From: a virus
Lineage: Duplodnaviria; Heunggongvirae; Uroviricota; Caudoviricetes
Reading direction: 5' to 3' (one strand)
IMG/VR virus record: IMGVR_UViG_2713896784_000031
DNA: 16,821 bases
Each line of letters starts with the position of its first letter. Within the stretch, counting starts at the first letter, position 1. Under the pieces are notes generated by a model. That model was not told where the DNA came from and did no database searches. It worked only from the letters and a program-made list of their open reading frames with translations. Below are positions 1,553 to 8,071 of this stretch, one piece after another. Made by a program: the position numbers and the translations under genes.

Positions 1553-1741
1553 TCACGAGGACAGAAGTTTCTCGCAATTAAAATTTATCAGCTTTACTTT
1601 CTGCTCTCTGGACACGCCTGCTTCTTTTTTCCCTGAGAGCATTTTTTCGCATTCTGATTTCGTTAATTTAGATTTTGAATATCTTGTCCAGTTAGTAGGA
1701 GTGCCACCTTCTTTTTCAATAGTGGCAGTTATTTTATACAT
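1553..1741 (-). CDS. Small hypothetical protein, YdaC-like, 62 aa
   Basis: The ATG at 1741 is preceded by GGAGGT at 5 nt; it overlaps the lar/ralR stop by 8 nt, suggesting coupling; position matches ydaC in Rac gene order. Confidence 0.5.
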   Translation of the reverse strand: MYKITATIEKEGGTPTNWTRYSKSKLTKSECEKMLSGKKEAGVSREQKVKLINFNCEKLLSS

Positions 1742-2794: not shown

Positions 2795-5336
2795 TTGCAT
2801 ATTCCTTAGCCCAGCGGGGCAGTGATAACGTCTTAATAGCTGGCCATTCATTGGTATTGAGGCAGTCAGCCAGGGTTCGCAGATTGCGGTGATATTCCAG
2901 CTGACCTGCCAGTTTTGCTTCTTCGCCCATCATGAAAATTTCAACCGGATAACGTCCGCATTCAATAGTTGTGCTGGCAACCAGAAAAACGAAAGTTGGC
3001 TGCACTCCAAACTGTGCTTCATAACCGTCACTGTAGAATGCATCCTGAACGTGATAGCGGTAGTCGTAATAAGCGGTTTTGAATCGTTGAATATCCGCCG
3101 TAGTTTTCACGTCCATGATCCAGTGAAATTCAGGGATAATTTTGTCCGGACGGCACCGACACAAAATTCCTGTTTCAGGATCTTCCCAGTAAATTGATGA
3201 TTCAGCGTGTCCGGCGCTTTCAACAAGCCATTGCCCCAGCGGCAAAGCCATAACGCTTTGATACATGAGTTCAATTTTCAGACCTTCTTCCGCAGTGATA
3301 ACCGTTTTTCCTGTGCTTGCGCATTCCATCAGAAACGCTTTCTCTTCTTCTTTTCCGGCGTTTGTACGGCGGTTAAATTCAGGTGCTACGATAAAGCGGT
3401 TACTGAATTCTTCCGGTTCAAGTACCCGGCAGTGGAAAGCGGTTCCTAAATCGAGCGTTTTTGTCTTTGTGTTGTCCACGGGGGCATTTTTACGCCACAA
3501 ATACAGTGCCGGAGTATCAGCAATGTCATCGAGCTGAGACTTACTGACACCGGGACCTACGTGGTAATTCTCATTCGAAATTCCGTAATAAATACCTGGC
3601 TCTATGTCTTCTACGATTACGGGATCTGCGACTTCGCCAGTTTCATCACTGCAATCGCGATGCGGATCGCTGCCAGCATTCTCATTGTGCGGATGTTCAG
3701 CGCCTTCCATTTCCTCCGGATCATTTTCCTTAGCTTCAACCTGATTCTCTTCATCGAATGTTTCCTGGTATGTTGCGTCGCCCATCACCGCGCCACAATC
3801 AGGGCAGTTGCCNNNNNNNNNNNNNNNNNNNNNNNNNNNNNNNNNNNNNNNNNNNNNNNNNNNNNNNNNNNNNATCCATTTCGGATCATTCGGGTCGCTA
3901 ATCCCTTCAACAAATTCTCCGCGAGAGGCAGCCAGCAATTTGTCGGCATCGACAGGATTTTTGGGCGGAATGGTTTTCCGGGCTTCATGGAGTTCTGCCC
4001 GCAGTTTCTGATATTTCGCATCAACAGAATTTACCTGTGACTGAGCATCCAGCGGCTGCGTGTCCTGATGATGTTCAGTTGCATCCGGTTCCACTGTTTC
4101 AGCCGTTGCCTGTTTATCTGCCATTGCGCAAGATGGTTGCGGTTTTTCTTCACCATCGTGTTTTCCTTCTTCTGTTACACGCTGCGGCATCGGGGCAGAG
4201 GAACGACCGCAGGCAATATCCACGATTTCCGGATCAGGGTTGGCATGATCGGTTTCAATCAGCACCTTGTTCAGATATTCAGTGACATGCGCAGGGATAA
4301 CCTCGATCCCAATTGGTGCTTCTTTTACGGACGCAACCACGATGGCGCGGGAATAATCCAGCCCGCCAGGCATGGTGATGAATTTGTCGCGGAAAACAGA
4401 AAAGGGCGGTTTATTTTCAGCGATAATTTCCTCGACACGTTTAGCGTGTGCCGGATGAAGGTTATAAATATCCACATCCATTGAACGGGCCAGAACGCCG
4501 GTGGCTACATCTCGTGCGAGTGATGTCTTATCATGTTTGAATCCTTCACCACGATCGGTAATATTTCCGCCGCCAGCGTTAGCGCCGGATGGCGTGCGGC
4601 TGATGCGTGAAACACGATTTCCTTTCATCCACTCTTTTGTAAGCAGACCGCGATCGGTGTAGTCAGCGCCCAGGTATGCTTCGATAAAAGAGGTCATCAG
4701 TCCCAGGTCCGAATTTACGGGGGCGGGGAAAACTTTGTCAGTGTCTCGCACCAGTTTGTACAAATCCCGAATCTCCAGCGGTTCGAGTTGCACTGCTTTA
4801 TTTGAGATGGCCAGCGCGGTAACGGCGGGAAGTTTTTCATCCTGTGCGTTATGTAATGCGCGCAGTTTGTCCAGTGAAACGTGCGTGAGCGGTTTTTCGC
4901 TGTTGTGTTGCGCCAGCCAGCGAACAGGCAGAATCTGACCTGAAACCGGAAGAAGCATATTCTCCTCAATCTTAGCCATGTCTTCGCCGTTGACGTTGGT
5001 ATTGTCAGTACTGGCTGGTTTGTCCGGAACAGAGGGCGCGATAAGTATCATTGTGATACCATCTTCTCCGCCTTTTTCGTATCGGTTGCAGAATTCAGTA
5101 TCAAACACACCTTCCGGTGGAAGGTCATTCACAACGGGTAAATGGACGCGGATGGGTTTTTTAAAATCCTCTTCGTCAAATCCGGCATCGTCCATTGCAG
5201 CAATGCAGCGTGAAACCGCAACAGAAAGTTTTTTTGCCTCTGTCCAGAAAAAGCCGCCTTTGATGCCGAGGCGTTTTCTGGTTTTATCATTTTTCGCGTC
5301 GCAATACAGAGCGTAATTTTCTTTATCAGTACTCAT
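2787..5336 (-). CDS. recE: RecE exonuclease VIII-like 5'-3' dsDNA exonuclease, interrupted by an N-run at 3813-3873; the N-terminal region differs from the K-12 protein as I recall it
   Basis: The C-terminal two-thirds ([17 protein letters not shown]...[13 protein letters not shown]...[15 protein letters not shown]) matches recalled RecE; GAGGT ribosome-binding site 6 nt before the ATG at 5336; recT follows, overlapping. Confidence 0.85.
3813..3873. other. Run of 61 N (assembly gap or masked bases) inside recE
   Basis: Literal n characters in the sequence; recE stays in frame across the run, but the true length is unknown. Confidence 0.99.
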
Positions 5337-5808: not shown

Positions 5809-5854
5809 AATTATCTCCTTAATAAATTTCTCGTATTAAGAAAATTCCAGAAAA

Positions 5855-6409
5855 CTATTTAATACTCAGCAACTGCTCGACGGTCATATTTTTAATTGCG
5901 CTTCGGTTTACAAGAGTCCAGCCCTGTTTCTCCAGATAAAGGCGGAAAGTGTCCAGGGTACAGACGAGAGCGCCATCAGGAACGGTTTCAGTGAATTCGA
6001 CGTTGCCGAATTTGTCGAAGCGAACAACCAGAGTGCGCCCATCGCCCGGAATGATTTTGTTTGTGGGAGTGGTATTATTCTGGCGTAGCTCTGCTTCCAT
6101 GCGGTCGAACTCAGCGATGTAGGCCTCTTTGAATGCAGCGGCTTTTTTGCCAGTGAAACCCATCACCAGGAAAACGAAGCCGTTTTTGGTGATTTGGTAC
6201 ATTGGGAGTTTGCGCCCGGTTGAGTCGGTGTATTCACTTGGCTTAAAATTAAGCTCAGTGAATTCTGAGGAACATTCCAGAGCTTCAATTTTTTGAATGA
6301 CGTTTTTATGCAGCTTGCGGAAAAACTCTGCAACTGCAACAGACGTAGTGACAGCACGACCATTTTCGATGGTTACGTCAGGGTGAGAAAGGGTAGGGAT
6401 AGTAGCCAT
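5855..6409 (-). CDS. Phage Rha-family regulatory / antirepressor-like protein, about 184 aa from internal ATG
   Basis: From M99 of the track ORF, MATIPTLSHPDVTIENGRAVTTSVAVAEFFRKLHKNVIQKIEA...FKPSEYTDSTGRKLPMYQITKNGFVFLVMGFTGKKAAAFKEAYIAEFDRME fits the Phage_pRha domain consensus. The 98-aa upstream extension contains a terminator hairpin and is probably non-coding. Confidence 0.7.
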   Translation of the reverse strand: MATIPTLSHPDVTIENGRAVTTSVAVAEFFRKLHKNVIQKIEALECSSEFTELNFKPSEYTDSTGRKLPMYQITKNGFVFLVMGFTGKKAAAFKEAYIAEFDRMEAELRQNNTTPTNKIIPGDGRTLVVRFDKFGNVEFTETVPDGALVCTLDTFRLYLEKQGWTLVNRSAIKNMTVEQLLSIK

Positions 6410-6570
6410 GATGGCAGCCTCTAGTGATAAGTTGGTAAACTCACCACCGGAGGTGCAAATCTCATGGGTGGTGAGACGTACAGGGTTTGCACTACCGGTC
6501 ACTAGAGAATCCGGCCCGCCCGAAAACGGCCCCATACGCCCCACCATAATCTGAATGTGGCTGCGCTTTA

Positions 6571-6597
6571 CGCATAAAAAAACCGCTTTGGCGCGGT
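6571..6597 (-). terminator. Rho-independent terminator (minus strand): stem AACCGC/GCGGTT followed by a T7 run
   Basis: Plus strand reads aaaaaaaccgctttggcgcggtt; on the minus strand this is a GC-rich hairpin followed by TTTTTTT. Confidence 0.55.
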
Positions 6598-7114
6598 TAT
6601 GCGCTCTAGTGATCATCGGGGTGCAAATCCCGGCACCCGTTTTATGAGGTGCAGGTGCACTATAATTCCACCCGTTCTGGTTTTCAATAGCTACATCCAA
6701 CATTTTCTCTCACCTTTCATCACTGAAGTGAACTTTGTTGATGCGGTGCCTGGTGCCTCCAGGTGACGTTAACCAGTTAACAATTAACGCCGGATAATCC
6801 ACCCATAACACTGATGCTTTTAACTGTGCCGCGTGCGCTCAGCCGCATTCACCGCATCACAAAATTCACTTTAAAAAGGGGCGGCAGGGCAGCCACGGAG
6901 TAGAACTGATGCCGCCAAGACTACACACAGCAATGTCGTTATTTACAACCGGAGGCGCACTCCCACCATTTAAATTTAACAGACAAGACCGACTCTTTAT
7001 GGATATCGGAAATGCGCCTTCGTGTTGTGCCCGGTTTTATTTCACCACCTCCGGGCTTTGGTGGCCTCGGCTATACCCCTACAGCAAGAATATTGAATTA
7101 ATCCAATAAATGGT

Positions 7115-7267
7115 TTAGCTGGTATTTTTGGCAAGCCAGCGACGTGCGCCAGCTTCGGTTTTAAACGATTTGCTTTTGGTATACGTCATGGCGGTGAATG
7201 TGCCGTCCTGATTGGGAAACACGCCACATACCAGAGATTCGTTGTTGCCAAGATCGATAGTATCCAT
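7115..7267 (-). CDS. Small hypothetical phage protein (YdaF-like), 50 aa
   Basis: The ATG at 7267 is preceded by GAGG at 6 nt; MDTIDLGNNESLVCGVFPNQDGTFTAMTYTKSKSFKTEAGARRWLAKNTS. Similarity to Rac YdaF is from memory and uncertain. Confidence 0.45.
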   Translation of the reverse strand: MDTIDLGNNESLVCGVFPNQDGTFTAMTYTKSKSFKTEAGARRWLAKNTS

Positions 7268-7573: not shown

Positions 7574-7993
7574 TTACTCCGGTGGGGGATTATCTTTAAG
7601 CCTGCCTCTCAAATATTTTTCTACATACTCATCGATTTCTTTTAGCCGGACTTCAAATAGCTCAATCATTCGTTGTTGTTCTGAGCCCGGTAGCTGGTTA
7701 AACAACTCAAGAAGTTTTCGTTGGGATTCATTTAACCACAATTCAGAAGATTCCTGTTCTCCAAAGAGGAGCTCAGGAGGAGATATGCCAAGTGCCTTTC
7801 CCAATACGACAGCGTCATGCACTCCAACATTTCTGCTACCCGCCTCATAGTTACCTATACGCGATTGCGTCCATCCGCAGATTTCAGCAAGTTTTCCTTG
7901 AGATAAACCAAGCTTCTGCCTGCGCTCTTTAAGACGCATTGCAATTTTGTCATTGAGCCTACTAGCGGCAATTTTTTCGTTTTCTTTTTCCAT
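7574..7993 (-). CDS. Prophage repressor, XRE-family HTH protein without an S24 peptidase domain, 139 aa
   Basis: HTH motif LGLSQGKLAEICGWTQSRIGNYEAG; divergent from a Cro-like gene with palindromic operators between them; no Ser/Lys LexA-type autocleavage domain recognisable in the C-terminal region. Confidence 0.75.
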   Translation of the reverse strand: MEKENEKIAASRLNDKIAMRLKERRQKLGLSQGKLAEICGWTQSRIGNYEAGSRNVGVHDAVVLGKALGISPPELLFGEQESSELWLNESQRKLLELFNQLPGSEQQRMIELFEVRLKEIDEYVEKYLRGRLKDNPPPE

Positions 7994-8004
7994 TGCATCC
8001 TTGT

Positions 8005-8019
8005 ATCACGAATCGTGAT
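8005..8019. promoter_or_regulatory. Perfect 15-bp palindrome ATCACGAATCGTGAT, candidate operator in the repressor/cro intergenic region
   Basis: Exact inverted repeat seen in the sequence, 12 nt upstream of the repressor start codon. Confidence 0.5.
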
Positions 8020-8040
8020 TTACACAAAACACAAAACAGC

Positions 8041-8071
8041 TTGACCATATAACACAAGATGTGTTTAAAAT
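8041..8071 (+). promoter_or_regulatory. Candidate rightward early promoter (TTGACC -35, TAAAAT -10, 19-nt spacer) overlapping palindrome AACACAAGATGTGTT (8051-8065)
   Basis: Consensus-like hexamers upstream of the Cro-like gene; a second palindrome overlaps the spacer. The spacer is longer than optimal. Confidence 0.4.

Follow-up and report, generated by a model that had tools for sequence, protein, structure and literature searches.

What occupies the roughly 700 nucleotides (nt; positions 6410-7114) between the Rha gene and the DUF1391 gene in a 16,821-nt stretch of caudoviricete DNA (IMG/VR record IMGVR_UViG_2713896784_000031; the whole stretch is hereafter the window)? A preliminary description, made from the letters alone, had found no convincing gene there and had suggested a decayed gene, a small RNA or regulatory DNA. 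The absence of a gene holds for conventional protein genes only. In the covariance-model scan for structured RNA that the description had recommended, three Rfam families, DicF, IsrK and C4, score above their gathering thresholds within the gap, all on the minus strand, and the small RNA or regulatory DNA offered as one option is supported more strongly than proposed: the gap contains at least three small RNA (sRNA) genes plus a structured leader, all of known kinds. The gap is explained by known RNA families in a known arrangement, of which this member is currently unannotated. [quoted passage not shown]

The isrK-C4 cassette and its relatives

Judged from sequence, the window holds a further member of the family that includes P1 c4, P4 CI and Gifsy-1 IsrK. 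In the direction of transcription the cassette consists of:

6659-6687, minus strand: sigma-70 promoter of isrK (PisrK), TTGAAA and TATAGT separated by 17 nt (promoter scan, 10/12 matches; transcription start site at about 6652)
6574-6652, minus strand: IsrK sRNA (RF01394, 68.6 bits against a gathering score of 50, Rfam match 6576-6652; terminator scan)
6464-6551, minus strand: C4-type antisense RNA, tRNA-like, with a 17-bp stem and two hairpins (RF01695, 78.1 bits against a gathering score of 45, full-length match 1-87)
6407-6459, minus strand: Rha leader with the C4 target boxes a2 (6459-6453) and b2 (6427-6419), the Shine-Dalgarno (SD) sequence GAGG (6421-6418) and the ATG (6409-6407)
5855-6409, minus strand: Rha-family antirepressor-type gene, 184 amino acids (PF09669, E 2e-31; PHROG anti-repressor families)

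The assignment of IsrK combines its covariance score with its own promoter and a Rho-independent terminator. The RNA is laid out as hairpin 1, then hairpin 2, whose loop contains box a1 (6627-6621, UUUGCAC), then box b1 (6612-6604, UCACUAGAG) and the intrinsic terminator, a 6-bp stem (6598-6581) followed by seven U (6580-6574). This is the internal minus-strand hairpin that had been placed at 6571-6597, and it is real. PisrK ends 7 nt ahead of IsrK +1, aligns with the P1c4 promoter of P1 and the PisrK promoter of Gifsy-1, and in the alignment keeps its hexamers and 17-nt spacing in lineages whose surroundings differ. The separate Rfam model for the upstream target, c4-a1b1, reaches 18.8 bits in the window, below its gathering score of 46.7, and 48.1 bits in Gifsy-1.

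C4 is identified by its covariance score, its tRNA-like fold, the boxes a2 and b2 at the downstream ribosome-binding site and the upstream a1/b1 duplicate. Box b' (6507-6499, CUCUAGUGA) lies in the loop of hairpin 2 and box a' (6492-6486, GUGCAAA) in the single strand 3' of that loop; both are complementary to a1/b1 of IsrK and to the identical a2/b2 pair in the Rha leader. In the window a2 matches a' at 7/7 positions and b2 matches b' at 9/9, and b2 overlaps the SD sequence GAGG, 10 nt ahead of the Rha ATG. Two in-frame AUGs within C4 (6547-6545 and 6535-6533) are the counterparts of the two orf45 starts of Gifsy-1. The conserved internal Rha ATG stands at 6409-6407, and the gap therefore begins at 6410, as first described.

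The layout of P1/P7 immI can be aligned with the window in the same order: sigma-70 promoter, a1, b1, hairpin with U-run, tRNA-like C4 carrying a' and b', a2, b2 and ATG. As in P1, a2 lies directly past C4 and b2 about 10 nt ahead of the first ATG, and the P1/P7 cargo is likewise an antirepressor, heteroimmunity being conferred there by changes in the a and b boxes. Unlike in P1, where icd-ant follows, Rha is the first gene of the module here; a C1-type operator was not recognised at the window promoter; a1b1, upstream, belongs to a separate sRNA with its own terminator (IsrK); and the cargo is fused to an open frame that passes through the RNAs, whereas in P1 that frame is closed, by eye, 14 codons from the C4 AUG.

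The isrK-orf45-anrP locus of Salmonella Gifsy-1 (Hershko-Shalev et al. 2016, PMC4825925) matches the same Rfam families, C4 corresponding to orf45/STnc1160, and its matches between antQ and anrP are isrK, c4-a1b1 and C4. The a and b boxes occupy the same places, IsrK is terminated and also read through, the cargo is antirepressor-like, and the two AUGs, at +106/+118 here, are at +107/+119 in that paper's numbering (PMC4825925). However, AnrP has an ORF6N domain rather than Rha; orf45 is a separate 45-codon upstream open reading frame (ORF) that runs from an AUG in the 5' strand of C4 to a stop overlapping the anrP ATG, whereas the equivalent frame here is fused to Rha and extends upstream through IsrK; and the Gifsy-1 locus lies by antQ in the late region, not in an early-left operon. 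In P4 the Rfam C4 match is the CI RNA, an isrK match falls at the seqA position, the ORF over the RNA matches the Pfam family Ash and the next gene encodes the derepression protein epsilon. Unlike here, cargo and context differ, and according to the literature CI acts by transcription termination.

The cargo of the sampled loci includes Rha, ORF6N (AnrP), AntA and Bro-N domain proteins, an epsilon-like gene with a sub-threshold match to the Pfam family Derepression (23.4 bits, cut-off 27) and a gene that by eye was recognised as Icd-like and has no Pfam match. All cargo with family matches is predicted by them to be of antirepressor or derepression type. Proteins with different N-terminal domains (Rha, ORF6N, Bro-N, AntA) appear by eye to have in common a C-terminal segment of about 60 amino acids with the pattern ...G..V.F.E.VP.....C....F...L...GW.vv.R..l... 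(window 5855-6100, minus strand; locus L204 33513-33700, minus strand), which is possibly the effector part of the antirepressors.

Pairing boxes and the proposed switch

How specific is the pairing between C4 and its targets? Related viral loci were collected with a probe from the translated region (80 loci) and with a 19-mer from the C4 3' strand alone (120 more), and the covariation alignment comprises 28 distinct modules. In these the scaffold is near invariant. The 17-bp stem and both hairpins of C4 are 99-100% paired, with compensatory changes at 3/5 pairs of hairpin 1, the internal helices of IsrK and C4 together are 97.7% paired, and the minimum free energy (MFE) of C4 has a z-score of -3.1. 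The six boxes are hypervariable and change together, in five a-types and 12 b-types that occur in reassorted combinations. Helix b-I of Hershko-Shalev et al., in which the middle of IsrK pairs with orf45/C4 downstream, recurs here: in a1:a' 100% of cells are paired and 5/7 pairs show double-sided changes, and b1:b' is 92% paired with 7/9 pairs covarying. Overall box pairing is 95.5%, against 70.2% when boxes are shuffled (0/500 shuffles reach the observed value) and 30-51% in slid controls. The published compensatory mutants of Gifsy-1, G28A/C162U and G31A/C159U (PMC4825925), map to the a1:a' helix.

The covariation extends to the third partner. Each module's own leader matches its a' at 7/7 positions and its b' at 8-9/9. 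In non-cognate leaders a' never reaches 7/7 and b' mostly reaches 5-7/9, a few near-identical b types cross-matching at 8-9. Because a2 and b2 are identical, not complementary, to a1 and b1, this identity is selectable only through pairing with a' and b'. We propose that the a and b boxes are hypervariable specificity determinants that keep the modules of co-resident prophages orthogonal. Viral contig L138 carries two Rha-type isrK-C4 modules in tandem (about 6915-7185 and 7785-8055, some 870 bp apart) that differ in a/b type, TTGGCGT/TGACTACC against GTGGAAA/TCAACATAG, which fits orthogonal specificities inside one element.

In the switch that we envisage, PisrK transcripts would mostly end at the intrinsic terminator and give the ~77-nt IsrK, and transcripts that read through would carry the tRNA-like C4 RNA. 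Pairing of a' and b' with a2 and b2 would block translation of Rha, because b2 overlaps the SD sequence. Since IsrK carries the identical boxes a1 and b1, it would compete for C4 in cis or in trans and relieve the block, as was shown experimentally for anrP in Gifsy-1, where IsrK supplied in trans raises anrP translation more than 100-fold (PMC4825925). The direction of regulation proposed here is that of the homologues, and on the same analogy C4 would be matured by RNase P and would repress the antirepressor in vivo, and Rha, the presumed cargo under control, would act as an antirepressor. Hfq binding by IsrK and trans-activation of antirepressor translation, known only for Gifsy-1, may apply in the same way. 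In enterohaemorrhagic E. coli (EHEC) EDL933 a homologous C4 copy ranks with the most abundant RNAs, and its coverage by ribosomes is low (ribosome coverage value, RCV, 0.06); the EHEC RNA-seq/Ribo-seq study left out C4 and isrK copies that overlap annotated genes.

Might C4 instead act mainly as in P4, by pairing with a1b1 (seqA-like) and a2b2 (seqC-like) of the nascent transcript and so terminating transcription prematurely? P4 has its isrK-like and C4 matches at the seqA and CI positions, an intrinsic terminator separates a1b1 from C4, and Hershko-Shalev et al. draw the same parallel (PMC4825925). The position of b2 argues otherwise, since it abuts or overlaps the SD sequence at a fixed -18 to -12 from the ATG in all modules, which is the arrangement of P1, where translational repression is primary according to the annotation of the P1 record. 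In Gifsy-1, moreover, translation rises 139-fold and transcription only 8-fold (PMC4825925). Termination as the main mode is therefore unlikely, and the two modes are not mutually exclusive.

The near-invariant GGUGGUGAG of the Rha leader (6448-6440, minus strand) is perfectly complementary to the acceptor-like 3' strand of C4, CUCACCACC. This complementarity hints that read-through mRNA could fold differently as long as it is unprocessed, perhaps as in the structure A/B switch of Gifsy-1.

The open frame through the RNA genes

Is the RNA cassette also a protein-coding sequence? In the annotation the Rha gene does not begin at 6409. It forms the 3' part of a 282-amino acid 'Ash-Rha' ORF (5855-6703), of which Rha-domain homology occupies the residues from 119 onwards and whose start is a further feature:

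6701-6717, minus strand: SD sequence (AAAGGTGAGAG) and ATG (6703-6701), start of the annotated 282-amino acid ORF

This ATG occupies the dicB/kilR start position, just upstream of the isrK promoter. Residues 14-108 match the Pfam family Phage_ASH (PF10554) with 57 bits (window 6380-6664, minus strand); the match begins 12 nt upstream of IsrK +1 and spans IsrK, C4, the leader and the first ten Rha codons. PHROGs 995, 821, 6928, 3960 and 29966 match the translated IsrK/C4 region.

Taken at face value, the ORF would be an ordinary gene whose first 98 residues form a genuine folded Ash domain, the RNA matches being incidental. The Pfam hidden Markov model score speaks for this, as do the several PHROG families that take in the extension and the long ORF annotated by PGAP. 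So does a census of stop codons in 51 unique Rha-type modules, which were chosen regardless of frame: the frame of the Rha ATG contains no stop in the 300 nt upstream in 51/51, stops fall at 36 and 29 distinct positions in the other two frames, and an ATG with an SD-like sequence occurs at -294 to -303 in at least five unrelated upstream contexts. However, the Pfam match coincides with IsrK, C4 and the leader plus flanks, and the ORF has a promoter and an intrinsic terminator inside it. Its variation is reverse-complement covariation between boxes rather than codon-wise change, and the identical nucleotides of b1 and b2 fall into different frames. A frame-independent sample contains other lineages in which the conserved C4 3' strand is read as PTLYVSPP, not NPVRLTT, and the ORF closes after 14-45 codons. 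The unrelated downstream cargo proteins all begin at the conserved internal ATG. The founder of the family, the P4 ORF that matches Pfam Ash (L205 8168-8584, minus strand), is what used to be called the 'cI protein' ORF; it lies over the gene of the CI RNA, an Rfam C4 match. AlphaFold2 returned a predicted local distance difference test score (pLDDT) of 35 and a predicted template modelling score (pTM) of 0.18 for the extension, from a 12-sequence alignment too shallow to show much, and a codon-position test found no third-position excess, a weak test because RNA constraints dominate. As a protein domain, Ash is thus backed by its profile score, and neither amino acid conservation nor foldability was found. 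An ordinary gene with a folded Ash domain is very improbable: the conservation of the extension is owed to the embedded RNAs, which dictate its amino acid sequence. A survey of P4 satellites took PF10554 as the marker of epsilon (PMC8628076); P4 epsilon itself matches PF25738, not PF10554.

The extension had been described as artefactual. This stands as far as its conservation, which comes from the embedded RNAs, and its lack of a predicted fold are concerned; it does not stand for the frame, and the census contradicts the idea that the Ash ORF is a pure annotation artefact. A stop-free frame that starts at an SD sequence and an ATG means that ribosomes probably traverse the 98-codon extension in the Rha-type lineage. 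We offer as a tentative proposal, which together with its steps we think possible rather than probable, that in Rha-type modules the Ash frame is a maintained ribosome path through the RNA genes. It would run stop-free from the SD sequence and ATG upstream of PisrK through the promoter, IsrK, the terminator, C4 and a2/b2 into Rha. Ribosomes translating transcripts from an upstream early promoter would suppress the terminator of IsrK and open up C4 and its target duplexes, and would so override the switch; the outcome would be a Rha extended at its N terminus and expression of kilR, recET, xis and int downstream. Any transcript begun at PisrK would lack the start codon and hence would still be RNA-controlled. 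The amino acids of the 'Ash domain' would be a by-product of the RNA, constrained only against stops.

In some contigs the frame continues upstream in long in-frame extensions, to about 400 codons; these look like junk or antisense translations and were not counted towards real domains. In loci of the MANRKQ type (L090, L097, L105) the Ash-frame ORF is not fused to the ~77-amino acid epsilon-like gene and runs on for about 100 codons (to 260) in a different frame, overlapping that gene. An 'ash family' protein, P0072, opens with an Icd-like sequence (MATRQHTP...FVWRFLALSAGE), after which come a second Ash region and one more MATIPT start; this suggests tandem modules read as one ORF.

The rest of the gap and the prophage

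The remainder of the gap and its upstream boundary comprise the following:

7115-7267, minus strand: DUF1391 (ydaF/ydfA-like) gene (Pfam PF07151, E 8e-29; RefSeq coding sequence; aligns with K-12 ydfA and ydaF)
6909-7109, plus strand: 66-amino acid ORF, spurious, antisense to the 5' region of the sRNA (no Pfam or PHROG match, no PGAP call)
6874-6966, minus strand: KilS/DicF-type sRNA (Rfam DicF core 6879-6929; terminator stem 6896-6881, then a U-run)
6726-6871, minus strand: conserved structured leader, about 150 nt long (hairpins enclosed by a 22-bp helix that pairs 6871-6850 with 6748-6726)

The DUF1391 gene is the upstream neighbour of the gap and the first gene of a dicBF-like early-left operon. 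The sRNA after it belongs to the DicF family by its score (RF00039, 54.7 bits against a gathering score of 48; K-12 DicF scores 76.7), its terminator hairpin and its position. In a three-way alignment with K-12 kilS and dicF it proves to be a mosaic: the upstream flank and the 5' half, from about 6966, are identical to KilS of the K-12 Rac prophage and not DicF-like, and the loop, with ACUCCG retained, and the 3' hairpin are those of DicF from Qin. The K-12 homologue also points to a 5' end at about 6966 and to a promoter, and an extended -10-like TGTTAAATT lies upstream at 6981-6973. KilS is a Northern-verified Hfq sRNA in K-12 Rac (PMC8175672). EHEC carries four dicF copies. The P1 record annotates a 'dicF-like region' (L203 23792-23893) downstream of Pban, so that P1 too has a C4 module and a DicF relative, though not adjacent.

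The structured leader follows in the K-12 dicF-dicB (Qin) and kilS-kilR (Rac) intervals as well, and is present in 65 fetched loci. RNAalifold (18 sequences including K-12) gives 46 pairs, eight with compensatory change, and the MFE z-score is -3.9. RNase III has been reported to create a 72-nt DicF species near the DicF terminator, and the 5' strand of the leader starts a few nt past that terminator, at the RNase III site, which makes the leader a candidate RNase III substrate. We did not adopt an identity with STnc100 (RF02076)/PasD, which scores 41.8 bits against a gathering score of 47 at 6720-6889: the homologous K-12 spacer likewise has no STnc100 match at gathering, and PasD/STnc100 loci adjoin Q and lysis genes, unlike this leader. 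Matches to RprA, Trp_leader and RT-3 (E about 0.3-0.9) were taken as chance.

The order DUF1391 gene, sRNA and structured leader is thus that of K-12 Qin dicBF (ydfABC-dicF-dicB) and Rac kilS-kilR. Unlike in these, the sRNA is a mosaic, ydfB and ydfC are absent, and dicB or kilR does not come straight after the leader, where the isrK-C4-Rha cassette is inserted instead. Most of the gap has its homologues in the kilS-kilR and dicF-dicB intergenic RNA regions: DicF with the 165 nt downstream is about 95% identical to the Qin dicF-dicB spacer, and window 6726-7089 is 87% identical to the kilR-sieB interval of K-12 Rac, which holds KilS. Compared with K-12 Rac (L207 6241-6248), the window has a 907-bp insertion at 5819-6725, between the structured leader and kilR, that contains the entire ATG6703-PisrK-isrK-C4-Rha cassette. 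The sieB gene of K-12 Rac is cleanly absent, Rac 6627-7180 (554 nt) being replaced by 46 nt at window 7090-7135. The alignment shows the insertion and the replacement as modular exchange with sharply defined junctions.

Could the gap be a decayed protein gene, such as a remnant of sieB or another exclusion gene, as had been suggested? K-12 Rac does carry sieB in this neighbourhood, between kilS and ydaF. A tblastn search of the window with K-12 SieB nevertheless gave no match in the gap, its best one (E 0.23) lying elsewhere, the replacement left no remnant, and the remaining gap is accounted for by conserved RNA elements, all of which makes a decayed gene extremely improbable. The single 66-amino acid plus-strand ORF that had been called weak is present, and weak it is; we rejected it as a gene, for it has no family match, and frameshifts or stop codons break it in relatives at 93-95% nucleotide identity.

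At the ttcA site of STEC/O157:H7 genomes lies a Rac-like prophage, probably a cryptic one, to which the window is 100% identical. The genes run in the order int, xis, ralR/RalA, recT, recE, ydaE, kilR, Rha, DUF1391, cI-like repressor (7574-7993), cro-like and ydaT, the minus strand carrying all early-left genes. In the identical genomes RefSeq annotates no gene between the 282-amino acid Rha ORF and the DUF1391 gene. Other Rfam matches in the window are the RalA antitoxin sRNA (1557-1735, plus strand, 219 bits), sok (13742-13842, plus strand, 60.9 bits), the AgvB anti-GcvB sRNA (16303-16364, minus strand, 96.5 bits) and a partial tRNA-like match (16057-16116, plus strand, 37 bits); they are unannotated in the RefSeq record over the part of the window that it covers (to about 15,300). 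The window has four N runs of masked bases (3813-3873, 13844-13893, 16162-16211, 16565-16614), the first of which interrupts recE and causes the X run in its translation.

Several observations weigh against an RNA-controlled immunity module. Neither an operator nor a LexA box was identified at PisrK. IsrK toxicity in Gifsy-1 was made stronger, not weaker, by constitutive STnc1160, the C4 homologue (PMC4825925), so that C4 as a simple repressor is not demonstrated there. The open frame that passes through IsrK and C4 from an SD sequence and ATG is unexplained by a simple RNA model and suggests an added translational layer. For the KilS/DicF-type sRNA, the DicF-ftsZ duplex is not discriminating, the whole RNA against ftsZ -50 to +30 giving z -1.1 for the window and -2.0 for K-12 DicF. 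Finally, the Rac-like prophage is probably cryptic, and the module could be silent. Is it, then, an inactive relic of a defective prophage, conserved merely through the relatedness of strains? The full 1-kb arrangement occurs in 62 of 5426 E. coli genomes, 30 of these at ≥99% identity, and the Rac-like element is probably cryptic. Against this, all pairings (a1/a'/a2 and b1/b'/b2), the promoter hexamers, the terminator and the SD sequence are intact in the window, and dozens of phage contigs carry homologous modules of other specificities that are just as intact. A relic is improbable, and we retain the immunity module as the explanation of the cassette.

Beyond a routine family assignment, the locus offers a three-way covarying specificity code, evidence that the Ash 'domain' is the translation of an RNA module, and a stop-free frame that is unexplained. 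For annotation, genomes 100% identical to the window are without RNA annotation in the gap and have an RNA module labelled as a protein N-terminus. Pfam Ash and several PHROG families seem to be largely conceptual translations of the IsrK/C4 module, and flagging Ash as RNA translation would tidy inferences of domain architecture in phage antirepressors. Lambdoid prophages are numerous in STEC genomes, Stx phages among them. Gating of antirepressors by a combinatorial code of at least 5 x 12 RNA specificities, whose boxes are legible in the sequence itself, could determine which prophages cross-induce one another and, through this, the release of Shiga toxin.

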